A stretch of 46,613 nucleotides of DNA from a virus (IMGVR_UViG_2565956710_000003:1-46613), one strand, 5' to 3'; shown: positions 13,143 to 44,298, counted from the stretch's first letter. Numbers and translations are program-made. The notes: generated from the letters alone by a model not told the origin.

Positions 13143-16527
<3,385 letters not shown>

Positions 16528-36037: not shown

Positions 36038-38145
36038 GTTTACCCGAAGGCTTTGTTCTCGATAATCAGCCTGATAACTCACAGCTTCCTGATGGTTTTG
36101 TGCTTGATGCCCAACCAGAACAGCAGCAATCACCTTTGGTTTCGCCAGAGGAAAATTCCAGACAGGAAAATGTTGTTAATAATGCTAACGGTTTCGACCG
36201 TTTTATGTATGGCGTTCTCAGTGGATTGATGGATGTTGGTAAAGGTGTTGGCCTGTTTCAGGATATGACACCAGAAGAGCAAGCCGCAATTCAGTCTCTA
36301 CAGCAGAAGTTAGCGGCAAAACCATCAACCGCACAAGATGTTGGTGAGTTTGTTGGACAAGCAGCGCCATTTGTTAGTGGTGGTGGGATTATTTCTCAGG
36401 TTCCGAAAGGGGCGGCAAGGCTGGCTGCCGCCGCAGGGCTTGGTGCTGGAGAAGGGGCTATTGTAGCCAATGGAACAAATAGCGATGTTGCTTCTGGAGC
36501 TGCTATTGGCGCTGTGGCTGGCCCTGTAGCAGAGATTGTTGGTCCAGCGCTTGGGAAGATTGCAGGAAAAATTAAAAATAGTGCCGGAGATATTTATCGC
36601 TCATCCGTAGGGATGGGTAGTAAATCATCTAAAGCAACGTTAAAGAAAGCTGCTGGCGCAATGGACAATAAATTTATCGGCGGGCAACGAGCTATTCAAG
36701 ATTTCGCCGATGAAGTTAATCCTGATTTTAACGCGATAAATGCTATTCGTGAGCTAGAACTGGAAAATTATGCCACTCCAGGCATGATCTCTAATAATCC
36801 TGCTGTCAGGGCTCTTGATAATGCAGTGGCAAGTCTCCCTGGAACAGAGATTAGTGAGGCGCATAAGCGTTTTATTACTGAATTAGGAAGAAAAGCTGAT
36901 GAAATGATAACTTCATTTGGGGGAAGCCTTGATAAGCAACTGGTTTCTGACAGGCTTGCAGATAATTTTGATAAAACCATTTCATCATTACAAAATCAGT
37001 CAGATAACATCTACAACAAAATTGCCGAAAAGGTTCCTGTAAGAGACCGGATTGAGGCAACTAATACATTGAATTTTTTAGAGGATTTTGCTGATGATAT
37101 AGGTGGAATTGATGAATTATCTCCAATAATGAAGCGGACATTGAACCGACTTGATCCAAACACCTTGCCAACGTATGGGCGTTTAGATCTCGCTAGAAAG
37201 CAGGTTGGGCAAGCTATTGGCAAAGGCTCTGGCCCATTCAAGGATGAAGAAACAGGTGTTCTTAAAAAGTTATATGCAGCTATAACAGATGACCAACAGG
37301 CTGTCGCAGAAAAATATGGCGCAGGGGAGTTATGGACGCTTGGTAAGGAGTTGGTAAAAAAACGAAAATCCATTGAAGATGATGCCGTAACCGTTTTGGG
37401 TAGAAAACTTCAGCAATCAGCAATTCCAAAAGTTGAAAGTGCCGTTGTTAATATGGCAAAAGGAAACGGTGGTGACTTTAGGCAATTAATGAAGTCAATT
37501 CCAAAGGATATGCGGCAGGAAGTTGCGCTCACTTCAATGAATAAAGCATTTACCAGCTATGCTAAATCACCAGGTCAGCAATTAGGGGTTGATGGATTTG
37601 TAAAATGGTATAACGGAATGTCACGCAATGGGGCCAATATGAAGGCTCTCCGTGATGCTATTGGCACAGATGCATCAAAGCGCCTTGATACGATTTATCA
37701 AGCAGCCAAGGCTATGAATAGACTCAATACTGGTAAGCAGTATGCTAGCAGCCTTGTGGATCAGCAAGTTAATAACTTTCTGAAAGAAAAGGGTAGTCTC
37801 GCAAAAATTTATGGAATAGCCTCAAAAGCTGCTGCGGCGGAAGGTATTACAAGCTTATCTGGTCTTCCTGGTGTAGGTGCAACAGGGGTGATAACGTCAG
37901 CATTGATGTCAGGGAAAACAAGCAGGATAAAGGCTGCTGATGCTCTACTGTCTTCTCCTGAGTTTAAATCAATGCTATTTCGCCTGCAAAACGCACCAGT
38001 AGACAGAGCAGAAGTGAGACGCGTAATAGAAAGGAAACTGATGCAATCTGGGGCATTTAAGAGATGGGAGAAAACCTTATCAACAGATGAAGCAAAAACC
38101 ATTGCCCGCACGGGGATTATTACATGGCTCGCTAGTGACAGTTAG
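36022..38145 (+). CDS. Ejection protein (P22 gp16-like)
   Basis: 707-aa ORF, last and largest of the ejection-protein genes. Confidence 0.6.
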
Positions 38146-38369
38146 TCAACTTTGGTTATTTTGCCTTCTTTTTCTTGATGAACTTTGCATCCATTATCTT
38201 TTGATAGCCAAACTAAAAACTTTAAAACCTTAAACACAAGTACGGCTACTGCAATGAAAGCACCAATTGCAATTATTGCTAGCGAAATTATTTGCATTGG
38301 TGCTTTTAATGCAGGGAAAATAGTGTAAATGATCGCGAAAACAGTAATTATGAGGAACCATCGCTTCAC
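38142..38369 (-). CDS. Small two-helix membrane protein (candidate exclusion-type accessory gene)
   Basis: 75-aa ORF with a GTG start preceded by AAGGAGG at 5-nt spacing; two hydrophobic segments; opposite strand to the virion operon. Confidence 0.45.
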   Translation of the reverse strand: MKRWFLIITVFAIIYTIFPALKAPMQIISLAIIAIGAFIAVAVLVFKVLKFLVWLSKDNGCKVHQEKEGKITKVD

Positions 38370-38399
38370 ACCAACCTCCTTAGTTTTGAGCAGGATACC

Positions 38400-38765
38400 A
38401 TGAAAAAAGTTAACATTGGAAACGTACCAAAAATGCTCGTTCCGCTCTTTGAGAGCGGTACAATTGTGTTTTGCAGAGACTTTCCAGAATGGCAACGCCT
38501 GCATCAAAAACTTGGCGTGGACGTGCAGGACTCGGATGCCAACGGAGCGTCTCATACAATGAGCAGCGAGAATGGTGTTTTGCATGTGATAGGTGTGTTC
38601 AATGGCAAACTATCTACTATTGCCCATGAGTGCGCTCACATGGCATTCGATATCTGCTCAAGGGTCGGCGTTGATGTTGAACCAGGAAGAGCCAACGAGA
38701 CTTACTGCTACTTAATGAGCAGGCTTGTTGAGTTCTGCGAGCGACATATCAAAAAGCCGGAGTGA
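38400..38765 (+). CDS. Small HExxH-motif protein (putative zinc metallopeptidase-like)
   Basis: 121-aa ORF containing IAHECAHMAFD with a downstream Glu; divergent from the membrane protein gene with only a 30-bp spacer. Confidence 0.5.
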   Translation: MKKVNIGNVPKMLVPLFESGTIVFCRDFPEWQRLHQKLGVDVQDSDANGASHTMSSENGVLHVIGVFNGKLSTIAHECAHMAFDICSRVGVDVEPGRANETYCYLMSRLVEFCERHIKKPE

Positions 38766-38778
38766 CCCGGCTTGATTA

Positions 38779-38958
38779 TTACTTTTTGCTGTCTGGAGTT
38801 CGCTTATCTAATACCCAGCCATGACCTGGCTTTGTTGTTGGCGGAAGCCTTTCGTTGTCCTTGACGGTGGCAAAATTGTCTTTCTTACCTCCGCGCGGGC
38901 CAACTTCTTGGTATATTCCGCCGTTTTTTCCTGTGTTTTCACCTGGTTTTTTCGCCAT
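38779..38958 (-). CDS. Small basic Gly-rich protein (conserved about 60-aa family, function unknown)
   Basis: 59-aa ORF MAKKPGENTGKNGGIYQEVGPRGGKKDNFATVKDNERLPPTTKPGHGWVLDKRTPDSKK with a GAGGT Shine-Dalgarno. Confidence 0.5.
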   Translation of the reverse strand: MAKKPGENTGKNGGIYQEVGPRGGKKDNFATVKDNERLPPTTKPGHGWVLDKRTPDSKK

Positions 38959-39044
38959 GATATACCTCAACATGCACCCGTTATTGGGCGATTAAATATT
39001 GATCTCATTTTATGAGTAGTCAATATGGTCCAAAAAAGGCAAAA

Positions 39045-39072
39045 ATTAACCCACCGTCAGGTGGTTTTTTTG
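39045..39072. terminator. Bidirectional rho-independent terminator
   Basis: Hairpin CCACC-GTCA-GGTGG flanked by an A-run upstream and TTTTTTT downstream; overlaps the 3' end of the Mnt-like gene. Confidence 0.6.
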
Positions 39073-39377
39073 TTTAGCAGTTCTCTCAACTTTTCGTTCT
39101 GCTCTCTGAACTTTTCCTGTATTTCTTTTTGCATGGCGATAACCTGGGCTTGAAGTTGAACTAGCGCATCAACATTTAGCGGAACCGAGACGCTGTTGAT
39201 TTTATCTGCTATTTCCCCGAGTGTATTTTCTGCATTCAAGGCATCTTCCAGTATCTGAACAATCTCTGAGTTCATTGATCTGCCGTTACGTTTGGCTCGT
39301 TCAGCTATAGCATCCCGCATTCCTGCAGGAAGCCTGATATTGAACCTATCCATTTCATGACTAGGGAACTTGCTCAT
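39057..39377 (-). CDS. mnt: Mnt-like ribbon-helix-helix repressor (copy 1)
   Basis: 106-aa ORF with RHH motif FNIRLPAGMRDAIAERAKRNGRSMNSEIVQILEDAL and a C-terminal coiled coil ending KKTT, as P22 Mnt does. Confidence 0.7.
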   Translation of the reverse strand: MSKFPSHEMDRFNIRLPAGMRDAIAERAKRNGRSMNSEIVQILEDALNAENTLGEIADKINSVSVPLNVDALVQLQAQVIAMQKEIQEKFREQNEKLRELLNKKTT

Positions 39378-39488
39378 ATGACCTCAACGTAAAGATGTTC
39401 GCTAAACAATAGCACCAACTTGACATCAAAATAAATGGTGTTAAATTGGTTCTAGAACCAAGTTGGTATCATTGTGGGAGGATTACTT
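39378..39488. promoter_or_regulatory. Divergent promoter/operator region between mnt and arc
   Basis: Palindrome GGTTCTAGAACC, flanking inverted repeat ACCAACTTG...CAAGTTGGT, and TTGACA-like hexamers. Confidence 0.6.
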
Positions 39489-39662
39489 ATGAAAGATGTG
39501 CTTTACACAGGTCGTAAAAGTCAAAGTTTCCAGCTTCGTTTGCCAGCGCGAATGAAGGAGGAGATTAGACGTGTTGCTGAAATGGATGGAATTTCTATCA
39601 ACTCTGCGATTGTGCAGCGACTGGCTAAAAGCCTGAGAGAGGAAAGAGCTAATGCCCAGTAA
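39489..39662 (+). CDS. arc: Arc-like ribbon-helix-helix repressor
   Basis: 57-aa ORF MKDVLYTGRKSQSFQLRLPARMKEEIRRVAEMDGISINSAIVQRLAKSL with GGAGG upstream. Confidence 0.7.
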   Translation: MKDVLYTGRKSQSFQLRLPARMKEEIRRVAEMDGISINSAIVQRLAKSLREERANAQ

Positions 39663-39751
39663 AAATAGTGAAGCCCGGCAGTGCGTGAACACAAACCGGG
39701 CCTCTATGTCAGTAACCGTATGCAAGGAAACTAACATGAATATTGTAGCAA
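39662..39751 (-). ncRNA. Candidate sar-like antisense RNA over the ant start region (speculative)
   Basis: Minus-strand TATAAT at 39758-39763; imperfect hairpin GCCCGG...CCGGGC (39673-39701) followed on the minus strand by TCACTATTTTT in the arc-ant spacer. Confidence 0.25.
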
Positions 39752-40362
39752 AATCAGATTATAACTTCCACGGAGTTGAATTGGTGCCCACCCGTGATAT
39801 GCATGGTGTTTGGTTTACATCATCTAATATTGCATCTGCACTTAAATACGCAAATAGTCGTGCAGTAACAATGATTTATAACAAGTATAGCGATGAGTTT
39901 AGCGCCGGAATGACTCAGGTACTCGAAGTGAGTACCTCAGGAAATTATCGCAAAAAAGTGCGAGTTTTCTCACTACGCGGTGCCCACCTAATCGCGATGT
40001 TTGCTCGCACTCCGGTAGCCAAAGAGTTCCGCCGCTGGGTGCTGGATATTTTGGATCGGCAGGCAGAATGCTCACCGATTGCAAAACAGTTTACTGACGA
40101 AGAACTGGTTAATCTCTGCTACTTACAATTGTGGATGGAGAAGAGTCAACAAATGTGCAAACACATCTACCCAGGAATGAAGCAAATTGGCTCTGAGCTT
40201 TCAGGAAGAATTTACGATATTGCATATGAGACTCGCTATATGTCAGAAGAAACCAAGAAATCACTTCTTCGTGAAATGAAGAATCTTGATACCAACAATT
40301 TTGTCGTAAAGAACGCTCAGCCAATGCTGACAAAACTGCGCGGCGAGGAATGGATTCATTGA
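39736..40362 (+). CDS. ant: Antirepressor with BRO-N domain
   Basis: About 208 aa from MNIVAKSD (AAGGA Shine-Dalgarno); N-terminal FHGVELVPTRDMHGVWFTSSNIASALKY is BRO-N-like; start uncertain (alternatives at 39652 and 39706). Confidence 0.6.
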   Translation: MNIVAKSDYNFHGVELVPTRDMHGVWFTSSNIASALKYANSRAVTMIYNKYSDEFSAGMTQVLEVSTSGNYRKKVRVFSLRGAHLIAMFARTPVAKEFRRWVLDILDRQAECSPIAKQFTDEELVNLCYLQLWMEKSQQMCKHIYPGMKQIGSELSGRIYDIAYETRYMSEETKKSLLREMKNLDTNNFVVKNAQPMLTKLRGEEWIH

Positions 40363-40384
40363 TTGGTGCGCCGGACGGCGCAAA

Positions 40385-40456
40385 AAGAAAACCGCCAGTG
40401 TGCTGCTGGCGGCCTATGTCACACCCTTACTACCACATAAGGAATGCCTAATGACT
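40385..40456 (-). ncRNA. Candidate sar-like antisense RNA over the start of the second antirepressor gene (speculative)
   Basis: Minus-strand GTGACA, 17-bp spacer, TACATT inside the first codons of the 40451 gene; hairpin CCGCCAG-TGTGCTG-CTGGCGG (40393-40413) followed on the minus strand by TTTTCTTTTT. Confidence 0.3.
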
Positions 40457-41176
40457 TTGAAGAATGTAGCAAACATCGGATCCGTTGTCACGGATAAAAC
40501 CATTGACAGCCAAAGTCTTCTGATGATGGTTAATGAAGCTCGCAAGTTATGTGGAGAGCCATCAGTACGTAACAACAAATTCATCGAGAAAATTGAGGAT
40601 GAATTGGAGGGCGAGACCTACACAAAAAGTGTAGGTCGGAAAAACGGGGCTGACATTGATGTTATCTCCATGACTATCAAGCAGGCGCTTCGTGTTGCTG
40701 CTCGCGAATCTAAAGCAGTTCGCCGAACACTTGTAGACAAACTTGAAAGTATGCAGGAAGCACACATTAAAAGCGGTAAATCAGCGAGTGGACTTGTTGA
40801 GTATCGTCAAGCGCGAACACTGAAAATGACGGTTGAAGCTGTTACCAATCTGTTCGATCTGATGCCAAATCTTGCGCCGGAGGCAAAGCAGACAGCGGCA
40901 GCAAGTATAATCAACCCGCTTGTTGGTTTTAATGCAATACCTCTTCCGGCAATAGAAGAGCATTACTACTCAGCAGGGGAGGTTGCAGAGCAGCTTGGAG
41001 TAACGGCCAACAAGATTGGTCGCATTGCTAACGCAAACAACCTCAAAACTGAGCAGTACGGGAAGTTCTTCCTGGATAAATCGGCGCATTCCAGCAAACA
41101 GGTAGAGGCGTTCCGCTACAATTCTGAAGGCGTTAAAGCACTACAACACCTGCTACATGGCTCAAATGTGGCGTAA
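40451..41176 (+). CDS. Second antirepressor-like protein (KilA-C/ANT-type C-terminal domain)
   Basis: 241-aa ORF with AAGGA 7 nt upstream; the C-terminal segment YSAGEVAEQLGVTANKIGRIANANNLKTEQYGKFFL is ANT-like. Confidence 0.55.
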   Translation: MTLKNVANIGSVVTDKTIDSQSLLMMVNEARKLCGEPSVRNNKFIEKIEDELEGETYTKSVGRKNGADIDVISMTIKQALRVAARESKAVRRTLVDKLESMQEAHIKSGKSASGLVEYRQARTLKMTVEAVTNLFDLMPNLAPEAKQTAAASIINPLVGFNAIPLPAIEEHYYSAGEVAEQLGVTANKIGRIANANNLKTEQYGKFFLDKSAHSSKQVEAFRYNSEGVKALQHLLHGSNVA

Positions 41177-41195
41177 CATTTTATAATGAAAACTA

Positions 41196-41219
41196 AACCC
41201 GCTTAATCGCGGGTTTTTT
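41196..41219. terminator. Bidirectional terminator between convergent genes
   Basis: Hairpin ACCCGC-TTAATC-GCGGGT followed by TTTTTTC. Confidence 0.65.
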
Positions 41220-41460
41220 CTTTCCTTAGAATTTCAGCCGCAACTTCTTTTACTCGTTCCGAGATTAATGAGGCCAGTCTCTCTTCTTCATCACGATACC
41301 CGCTTACAGGTGATGGTTTGGAGAGAGATTCTTCCATCGTAGCCACAATTTCGGAATTGATAGACCTGTTATTCATTTTTGCACGCTGCTTAATCTTAGC
41401 GTGCAACTCGTGCGTAAGCCTCAAGTGGAACTGCGCCTCATCGTATTTGCTGTACATCAT
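41203..41460 (-). CDS. mnt: Mnt-like ribbon-helix-helix repressor (copy 2)
   Basis: 85-aa protein from MMYSKYDEAQFHLRLTHELHAKIKQRAKMNNRSINSEIVATMEESLSKPSPVSGYRDEEERLA, closely resembling P22 Mnt (recalled). Confidence 0.7.
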   Translation of the reverse strand: MMYSKYDEAQFHLRLTHELHAKIKQRAKMNNRSINSEIVATMEESLSKPSPVSGYRDEEERLASLISERVKEVAAEILRKEKTRD

Positions 41461-41592
41461 CAATGCCTCACCAAATGGGTGGAATGGCATCGTAAAACCT
41501 ACTGTACAAATCAACAATCGTACCGTTTCGGTATGTAACAAACACTAGCCGTAGCCATGCTGCGGCGATTCCTTGTATCTGGAGCAAATTAA

Positions 41593-44298
41593 ATGACAGA
41601 CATTACAGCCAATGTTGTGGTAAGCATGCCATCGCAACTCTTCACTATGGCGCGTTCTTTTAAAGCTGTAGCTAATGGCAAAATTTATATCGGTAAAATT
41701 GACACTGACCCGGTAAATCCTGAAAACCAGATTCAAGTTTATGTAGAGAACGAAGATGGCTCTCACGTTCCTGTTACACAGCCAATCGTCATCAATGCCG
41801 CTGGGTATCCAGTATATAACGGACAGATTGCCAAATTCGTAACCGTGCAAGGCCATTCTATGGCTGTTTACGATGCTTATGGCACTCAGCAGTTTTATTT
41901 TCCAAATGTATTAAAATACGATCCAGATCAGTTTGGCCCAGACTTCAAAGAGCAGTTATCTCAATCAGGAGCATACATTAATGATGATTCAAAAGGTGAT
42001 GCATTAATTGGTGTAAGGCAGCCATTTACCGGGGCTGTAACTATAACTCAGCATGAAAACAATGCTCTTTTCTTAAATGTAAAACAATTTGGAGCAATTG
42101 GGGATGGGAAATATCATCCATTATCTGAGTGGTTTTCTTCAATTTCTGAAGCAAAATCCTTATATCCTTTTGTTGACTCATTATCTCAGTCAATAGACTG
42201 GGCCGCGTGGCAAGCTGCCCTTAACACAGGAAAGGTTATTTATGGTACTGATAATGCGTATGTAATAACGGATACGTTAACACCTGTTTCTGGTGGTGGG
42301 ATAATTTGTCTTGGTGTGGGCAAATGGGTCTCAGGATATACTGCAACATTTGCTCCTGATATTACCACAGGAACCACATTCCTGATGTACGGGGTAGGAA
42401 ATAAAAAATATACTGTAGATTGTGTTTCTAATATGGATGTTAGTGGTGGTGTGGTTTCTAATCCATCTTCCGAAGACCCGTATACAACAACGGCACCTGC
42501 GTCATCATATGATTTATTGGATTTTACTAACGGTGATGCTAATGGGGCTATAAGAGCCACGCTTAAACCATTCTCTGCCGCAATATTGATGCCTGAGACA
42601 GGATGTGTTCGCCTTGAGAACTTTCGTATTGTTCCATATTTCAATGGGCTGGATGGTTATAAAGACATTGCAAATACCGGTCTTGGCGATGAGTGGGATG
42701 TAGGTATTTGGTCACGTGCTTCTTTTGGCAATGAATACCGCAATTTGCAGGTGGTTGGATACTGGCGCAAGACGGCACTTTTAAAAACGAACATTCCTGT
42801 ATCTGGCACGCTGGCCGCTCAGGGCGAGGATGAAAACTATTATCACTGTAGATTCCAAGGATTCAAGGGTGTTTCGATCCGCGCCCATGATGTATTCCGA
42901 ATTACAGCGGTAACGTCCAGCACTATCGAAATCCCATGGTCAGCAAGCCACACCTTCGAAACGTCCGGGGTTTTAAGATCTGGAGGCAGGAATTTCACTT
43001 ATTCAGGATTATCCGTATCCGGTGATAAGTTAGTATTTACTGGAGTGTCTAACGCTTCTGAGGCAACAGTAGGTTCTACTATACGGCGAAATGACATAGA
43101 TAACTTTGGTATGGCGGGAACGCAATTTTTCGATTGCTACATTACCAGCCTGTATCACCACACACATCTGCTTGCCACATCGCAATACCTGTCTCAACCA
43201 TTCAGCCGACCATCAGAGTGTATGGAGGTTTCAGGGGAACCAGTTCGCGGTGTACAGGTACATGCAGGAACCATTCAGGGATGGGATGATGTTCTTATTC
43301 ATCTACATGACTGTGGAAATATGAACTTTTACAGTACATATTTCGAAAGCCAGCAAGCATATGTAACTATAAATGGTGGTAATGCTATTGGTTATGGAGC
43401 ACGTATGATAGCTTCCCGGCAATCAACAAGCTCATTACCATATGCAGCAGGGAATACTCGAGTGCTTAGAATGGTCGGGTGCTCTGAAGGCAATGGCGTT
43501 GACTGGGGGCCTGTATTTAACAACTATACAGGAGGAAGATATAATTCTGGAGACGGTGTATTTAACCCCCGCGATGCATTTATAGACCATAAATCTCTTC
43601 CTGAGCAGTCAGGAGGTGAGTCAAGACTCGTATCACAAAAAGGAAATGCCAGAGTAGTATGTGGTGTTGGTAAAACTGTACTGCTTGGACCAACGTCAGG
43701 AGATTGTAATTTACAGAGTAATACTGGAAGTTTAAATATTAGAAGTGGGATAAGAGTAAGAATCGGTCACGCTGATGGAACAGACTGGTGGTTGGCAGAT
43801 GCTAATAAAATAGCTCCTGTTGATGATAATGTTAAAGCTATTGGACAGCCATCAAACAGATGCTCTGTTATTTATGCAGGAACCGGGTCAATCAATACAT
43901 CAGATGAAACTCTTAAAACAAGATATGATATTCTTAATGCAGAGCGTGATGCCGCTATTGAAATAAAGTCAGTCATCTATAAATTTAAATTTAATGACTC
44001 AATTAATCACAAAGGAATTGAGTCGTCCAGGTATCATTTTGGCGTTGGCGCTCAAACCGTAGGGGATATTCTTAGAAAGCATGGTTTAAACCCTGAGCAA
44101 TATGCTTTTTGGTGTTACGATGAATGGCCTGACGTATGGGATGAAGAGGTGATAACTGAAGAGAGCACAGATCCTGATACAGGTGAGAAAATTTATTCTC
44201 AATATAAAACAGGAGATATGATTCTTGTTAAAAAAGCAGGAGGACGCTACGGAATTCGTTATGACGAATTGGCTATGTTTATATTAATGGCAATGTAG
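41593..44298 (+). CDS. Tailspike: P22-type head-binding domain, divergent receptor domain, C-terminal intramolecular chaperone
   Basis: 901-aa ORF; N-terminus [59 protein letters not shown] matches the P22 gp9 head-binding domain; C-terminus has an S74-type autoprocessing signature ([12 protein letters not shown]). Confidence 0.85.

Follow-up and report, generated by a model that had tools for sequence, protein, structure and literature searches.

A probable diverged homologue of the P22 sar antisense RNA in the arc-ant spacer of a P22-like Escherichia coli prophage

Phage P22 restrains its antirepressor, Ant, with sar, a 69-nt RNA (PMC3134472) that acts by blocking the ant ribosome-binding site (PMC7968456) and that has been detected by small-RNA sequencing during P22 infection (PMC13397905). 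In the P22 record, arc occupies 14861-15022, sar 15021-15090 on the minus strand and its promoter, Psar, 15097-15125 on the same strand, with the ant ATG at 15091. The RNA has also been reported in other P22-like phages (PMC2629481, PMC12111858): epsilon34 and UAB_Phi20, compared here by their published annotation, carry an immI region or "ant moron" with arc, ant and an annotated Sar RNA. The sar gene was thus already known beyond P22, in phages; the element described here lies instead in an E. coli prophage. Phages make other small cis-antisense RNAs as well, such as lambda OOP and P22 sas, which tune lysis-lysogeny or exclusion genes (PMC5415839).

The stretch of DNA that was analysed (hereafter the window, 46.6 kb) represents a P22-like E. 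coli prophage with its immI or "ant moron" region, and shares 99.1-99.8% identity with the E. coli EC20 and 55989 chromosomes. The region runs from an ejection-protein gene, which ends at 38145, to the tailspike gene, which begins at 41593. Between these, an Arc-family gene on the minus strand (39057-39377) occupies the position of mnt in P22. It is followed on the plus strand by arc (39489-39662), which encodes a 57-aa Arc-family repressor (Pfam Arc, E = 8.3e-12) and ends in a TAA stop codon at 39660-39662, by the arc-ant spacer (39663-39735), and by ant (39736-40362), with which arc shares a transcription unit. The regulated gene is ant: its 208-aa product, the antirepressor, has Bro-N and P22_AR_C domains in a Pfam scan, in agreement with the BRO type originally assigned to it, and is called "P22AR C-terminal domain-containing protein" in RefSeq. 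A second plus-strand gene (40451-41176) has no Pfam match, and its counterparts in Escherichia phage JEP4 and Klebsiella phage KP12 are labelled KilA; a third Arc-family gene, identified by Pfam scan, lies beyond it on the minus strand (41203-41460). The order of a divergent Arc-family gene at the mnt position, arc, spacer, ant and tailspike gene is the same as in P22 immI.

Several other features of the region deserve mention. A consensus promoter scan places a Pant-like promoter, TTGACA-16-TAAATT with a TG, at 39420-39447 on the plus strand, the position of Pant in P22. This promoter would drive arc-ant transcription, converging with the promoter for the antisense RNA discussed below. A perfect 12-bp palindrome, GGTTCTAGAACC, sits at 39448-39459, directly downstream of the Pant-like -10 (TAAATT, 39442-39447), and is a candidate operator for an Arc-family repressor. 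Three Arc-family (ribbon-helix-helix) genes are found within this one moron (39057-39377 and 41203-41460 on the minus strand, 39489-39662 on the plus strand). The third of them is convergent with the second antirepressor-like gene (40451-41176), from which it is separated by a bidirectional terminator-like hairpin, AAACCCGC...GCGGGTTT, at 41195-41216, with T-runs on both strands. This hairpin accounts for a number of chance-level Rfam matches (RyhB, the Trp and Leu leaders, isrK and others).

The minus strand of the arc-ant spacer very probably encodes a diverged homologue of P22 sar that would block ant translation, a reading to which we assign a probability of roughly 0.85. It is based on synteny, on homology established via intermediates, on a two-hairpin fold with compensatory changes, and on a strand asymmetry in G-U pairing; production of the RNA, the positions of its ends and translational repression are predicted by analogy with P22. 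The original prediction had pointed to the arc-ant junction as the place where P22 encodes sar, and the coordinates of the P22 record bear this out. It is thus upheld as regards a sar-type antisense RNA gene at the junction; its promoter, the form of its hairpin and its ranking of the candidates were wrong or misjudged.

From the fold, a profile match and the P22 geometry, the RNA is predicted to be about 70-75 nt long and to lie within 39661-39735 (minus strand). Its 5' end would be at about 39735 and its 3' end within 39661-39666, both placed by analogy with P22, which gives full complementarity to the arc-ant spacer and to the ant Shine-Dalgarno sequence within that spacer. The minus-strand RNA from 39735 to 39661 folds at -33.3 kcal/mol, compared to a shuffle mean of -15.4 (z = -6.4), and none of 200 shuffles folded as well. 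Hairpin I (39708-39735) has a 6-bp stem, GUUAGU (39735-39730) paired with ACUGAC (39713-39708), and a 16-nt loop (39714-39729) that carries the anti-Shine-Dalgarno sequence UUCCUU, complementary to AAGGAA of ant. This hairpin, on the 5' side of the one originally noted, had not been mentioned. Hairpin II (39670-39704), the terminator stem-loop, consists of a 10-bp outer stem (39670-39679 paired with 39695-39704), an internal loop, a 4-bp inner stem and a 4-nt loop. Its outer stem contains the GCCCGG/CCGGGC pairing that was originally described as an imperfect hairpin with a long loop: the two sites are exact (39673-39678 and 39696-39701), and the supposed long loop is really an interrupted stem. 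The tail reported to follow the stem on the minus strand is present at 39661-39672, where the sequence is UUC-ACUAUUUUU and reads ...UUCACUAUUUUU; the terminator tail proper, ACUAUUUUU (39661-39669), overlaps the arc stop codon. A consensus scanner run on the window called neither a sar-type promoter nor a sar-type terminator here. The same scanner also misses the experimentally established Psar and sar terminator of P22, so its silence at the arc-ant spacer counts for little.

Relatives of the spacer were gathered by two pattern scans and by BLAST, yielding at least 36 distinct homologous arc-ant or equivalent spacers from viral contigs, from genome contigs (some of them labelled Intestinirhabdus, Erwinia and Pluralibacter), and from Salmonella phage Oslo, Klebsiella phage KP12 and Escherichia phage JEP4. 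In the genome-contig scan most matches were chance matches outside Enterobacterales, and about eight loci were true homologues; in the viral-contig scan about half of the matches listed were due to chance. Most relatives were collected with patterns that contained TGTCAGTAA, GAAGCCC or T[AG]TAGC, so the conservation of these blocks is partly built in, and many of the sequences are related by descent. For structural comparison, 32 distinct minus-strand RNAs, trimmed at the conserved GUU(A/G)GU, were aligned with MAFFT.

Where would transcription of the antisense RNA start? Judged from the sequence, the -10 element is most likely TGcTACAAT (39742-39750, minus strand), a probable Psar-type extended -10 that lies within ant codons 3-5 and aligns with the -10 of P22 Psar. 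The hexamer proper, TACAAT (39742-39747), is preceded by TG as in P22, and 6 nt separate it from position 39735. This gap puts the predicted start at about 39735, one base before the ATG; both the 6-nt gap and the position of the start relative to the ATG are the same in P22. A weak candidate -35, GTGGAA (39766-39771, minus strand), stands at a spacing of 18 bp and matches the consensus at three of six positions; the -35 of P22 Psar, GTGTTA, is equally poor (3/6). A TAYANT hexamer follows the ATG in all 24 distinct contexts compared, with T1, A2, A4 and T6 kept, in the forms TATACT (12 contexts), TACAAT (eight), TATAAT (two), TACACT and TATAGT (one each). TG precedes it in 18 of the 24. Over the same contexts its distance from the 5' arm of the RNA is constant at 6-7 nt, and its offset from the ATG is 3 or 6. 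It is likewise present in 22 of 22 distinct true homologues found by a scan whose pattern did not include the hexamer. It persists through a consistent wobble A in ATA/GTA and the wobble T of the preceding codon, and is kept despite differing Ant N-terminal domains (Bro-N here, P22_AR_N in P22 and Oslo).

The original prediction drew on a different hexamer, a perfect minus-strand TATAAT at 39758-39763. This sequence is indeed present, 22 nt inside ant, and an antisense RNA driven by it would start at about 39751, be about 90 nt long and cover the leader, the ATG and the first five ant codons. As a -10 element the hexamer is perfect, and a 91-nt RNA from 39751 would still form both hairpins (-35.1 kcal/mol, z = -6.3). 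Nevertheless, it is unlikely to be the promoter. The -35 had rightly been called poor: the best match at a spacing of 16-18 bp has at most two of six consensus positions, leaving no usable -35, and there is no TGn either. TATAAT occurs 10 times in the window, compared to 20.4 ± 4.7 times in dinucleotide-preserving shuffles, so the hexamer by itself is not beyond chance. Nor is the site conserved. The A at position 2 of this -10 is the wobble base of a Tyr codon (TAT), and in E. coli HS and many near-identical viral contigs the codon is TAC (gattaCaac) and the site reads TGTAAT, which is the commonest viral-contig variant among the matches listed. The hexamer is absent from six relatives (KP12, L056, L158, L208, L139 and L079). 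The site is also out of alignment with the -10 of P22 Psar, the counterpart of which is TACAAT, 16 bp away. TATAAT at 39758-39763 is probably a chance hexamer that could at most serve as a minor, second, strain-specific start.

The evidence for a sar homologue transcribed from the Psar-position hexamer is strengthened by the pattern of change in the stems. In the alignment of 32 relatives, 97.7% of stem cells pair in the two-hairpin structure, compared to 29-55% after a shift of the partners by one to three columns, and RNAalifold independently predicts both hairpins. Six pairs have been altered on both sides, and none of 500 shuffles attained the observed values. Hairpin I is almost invariant, with 99% of its stem cells paired, and its covariation comes mainly from KP12, a relative found by BLAST and not by motif, which builds the hairpin from another stem sequence (GUCGA/UCGAU) and has the same overall shape. 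In hairpin II, five of the 10 outer pairs have changed on both sides, and the stem occurs as GCCCGG/CCGGGC, GCCCAG/CUGGGC, GCCCGA/UCGGGC and ACCCCG/CGGGGU.

A palindrome forms on both strands, and the hairpin might instead serve the sense transcript: it could be an attenuator for arc-ant, an RNase III processing site or a modulator of ant translation, with no antisense RNA at all. The sense strand of the same region does fold, at -19.5 kcal/mol, and in the P22 system, too, the target is expected to be structured on the sense strand. This fold, however, is no better than that of shuffled sequence (z = -1.9), and past the stem the sense strand lacks a U-tract (CUCUAUGUCAG). The non-Watson-Crick stem cells in the 32 relatives are more telling: 103 are G-U on the minus strand, against a single A-C, the equivalent of a G-U on the plus strand, which argues that selection has preserved the structure in the antisense RNA rather than in the ant mRNA. 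A function limited to the sense strand would also leave unexplained why a -10-like hexamer is kept without variation at a constant distance from the stem. We consider it quite improbable, more so than an RNA started from TATAAT. That hexamer and palindrome co-occur by chance and have no function is hardly credible, for although TATAAT is not enriched in the window and the consensus scanner reports nothing at the spacer, such a coincidence is contradicted by the fold (z = -6.4), by compensatory changes across 32 relatives, by the strand asymmetry of the G-U cells and by homology to an RNA gene that has the same neighbours and has been characterised experimentally.

The homology to P22 sar is distant. 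Identity between the window element and P22 sar is about 54%, and an nhmmer profile built from the P22 class alone gives a borderline match (E = 0.045). With a profile of the P22 and Oslo classes only, the window class being left out, the top match in the 46.6-kb window is 39735-39663 on the minus strand (E = 8e-6). The curated Rfam model for sar, RF00262, found no match at E <= 10 in either 38000-42000 (4 kb) or 39640-39790 (151 nt). P22 itself scores 97.8 bits with this model, for which the gathering score is 43 bits, and none of 17 other diverged relatives (L002-L234) reached that score. Since the window element and these 17 relatives are all missed, RF00262 appears to be limited to sequences close to P22. 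At least three classes of hairpin II exist in prophages or viral contigs, among them genomes labelled Escherichia, Salmonella, Klebsiella, Erwinia, Pluralibacter and Intestinirhabdus. When the arc-ant query was compared to 5426 complete E. coli genomes, 91 matched at least part of it and 26 matched at least 80%. The RefSeq annotation of E. coli 55989 has no RNA in the arc-ant spacer. A regulatory RNA gene thus escapes present annotation pipelines, neither RF00262 nor RefSeq marking the window element or the diverged relatives examined, and the curated model looks narrower than the sar family itself. Another Rfam family, SymR (RF01809), was considered as an identity for the element and rejected: its score of 21.2 bits, against a gathering score of 61, is at chance level (E 0.038 to 1), and there is no symE context.

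The geometry of the element is tied to the ant start codon. It had been pointed out that a start at 39652 or 39706 would break this geometry; the start is at 39736. RefSeq places the ant start of E. coli 55989 at the equivalent of 39736, and the ATG there is preceded by the Shine-Dalgarno sequence AAGGAA. The starts at 39652 and 39706 were rejected: their upstream ATGs are missing in P22, JEP4 and E. coli HS, and RefSeq uses the 39736 equivalent. In the GenBank records of Salmonella phage Oslo and Klebsiella phage KP12, the ant or "Rha" coding sequence begins at an ATG inside arc (2751-3725 in L002 and 2748-3431 in L003, respectively), and these extensions span the entire sar-like element. Both starts are probably mis-annotated, since the conserved start is the ATG about 80 nt downstream that is preceded by a Shine-Dalgarno sequence. 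The sar-like element thus helps to fix the ant start codon, which some GenBank records place upstream, across the RNA gene.

How would such an RNA act? Transcription from the extended -10 in ant codons 3-5 would begin at about 39735, proceed antisense through the ant leader and stop at hairpin II and its ACUAUUUUU tail, giving a transcript of about 70-75 nt. This RNA would pair with arc-ant mRNA made either from Pant or by read-through from the late operon. The target site on the mRNA (39724-39738, plus strand) comprises the Shine-Dalgarno sequence AAGGAA (39724-39729) and the ATG (39736-39738); the RNA would cover the former and extend up to the base before the latter, blocking translation of Ant. 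With less antirepressor synthesized, the establishment and maintenance of lysogeny would be protected. This mechanism is that of P22 as found in textbooks and is conceptually nothing new.

The region is mosaic. A joint is seen at the 3' end of arc, at 39656 in the window, at 2500-2520 in L004 and at 2000-2010 in L243. BLAST alignments with JEP4 and with many E. coli genomes start at position 277 of the query, corresponding to 39656 in the window. A 57-aa ORF that is not Arc precedes the sar-like element and ant in E. coli HS and stands beside a gene for a LexA-like repressor (HTH and S24 domains); these two genes replace arc and the gene at the mnt position. The layout in phage JEP4 is like that in E. 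coli HS, the domain identity of the upstream ORF being established for HS only. Because the shared segment begins at 39656, without arc in HS, the sar-like RNA travels with ant and not with arc. The sar-like relatives, moreover, precede antirepressors with different N-terminal domains. Possibly, the sar-like RNA and the ant 5' end together are a portable cassette, an "antisense lock" that can move without arc; we regard this suggestion as tentative and rather doubtful. The authors of the epsilon34 paper had noted that ant must be controlled in some other way in the HS-1 and CUS-3 morons, which lack arc (PMC2629481). If the cassette does exist, arc-less morons might depend chiefly on the antisense RNA to hold back antirepressor synthesis.

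The original prediction had ranked the arc-ant candidate below another at 40385-40456. This order should be reversed: the arc-ant element is the true counterpart of sar, while a covariance model of the sar family (R1) does not pick up the one at 40385-40456. Paralogy of the two was considered and dropped on the same grounds. The second locus nevertheless has features of its own. The antisense candidate (40385-40470) lies upstream of the second gene (ATG at 40451), and a consensus scan finds a minus-strand promoter there, GTGACA-17-TACATT with a TG (40491 to 40463), as well as a strong minus-strand terminator at 40415-40389 with TTTTCTTTTT. The fold of the 40385-40470 candidate is weakly better than shuffles (z = -2.0). 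Independently of its surroundings, the leader of the second gene (about 90-130 bp) is 97-99% conserved in Klebsiella phage phiKp_30 and in further E. coli genomes. As part of the tentative lock proposal, the KilA-labelled gene (ant2) may be gated by an unrelated antisense RNA of its own (40385-40456), which would make two RNA locks in tandem.

Other known antisense RNAs resemble the predicted one to varying degrees. SymR and the RNA-OUT of IS10 are likewise short, structured cis-antisense RNAs that lie over the 5' leader and Shine-Dalgarno sequence of their targets, and the likeness is one of functional analogy only; the SymR model gives a weak architectural match to 39667-39738 on the minus strand, and its gene context is unrelated. 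Lambda OOP and P22 sas differ in their targets (cII/c1 and sieB), in their pairing regions and in their mechanisms, and have no sequence relationship to the window RNA.

P22 sar, on the other hand, is the counterpart of the window element. It likewise fills the arc-ant spacer, antisense to the ant leader, from a promoter in the first ant codons, and at 68-69 nt it is close to the 70-75 nt predicted here. The extended -10 of Psar is TGcTATACT (15097-15105), compared to TGcTACAAT in the window, so the hexamers are TATACT (15097-15102) and TACAAT. The two RNAs have the blocks GUU(A/G)GU, UUACUGACA, GA(A/G)GCCC and GGGCUUC in common, and the spacer DNAs share GAAGCCC...GGGC(U/C)UC, TGTCAGTAA and ATGAAT-A(G/T)T-(A/G)TA-GCAA. 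There are also differences: the interior of hairpin II is a continuous 14 bp in P22, whereas that of the window RNA has an internal loop and a GUGU/GCAC inner stem; the terminator tail of the window RNA, ACUAUUUUU, is richer in U than that of P22 sar, AACUUUACG; and the N-terminal domain of Ant is P22_AR_N in P22 but Bro-N in the window. The overall architecture is nonetheless shared. In hairpin I, a 6-bp stem and a 16-nt anti-Shine-Dalgarno loop are common to both phages, and the long terminator hairpin of P22 sar has a tail that overlaps the arc stop codon, as here. P22 sar folds at -29.5 kcal/mol (z = -5.3) and the P22 sense strand at -21.0, the same asymmetry between the strands as in the window.
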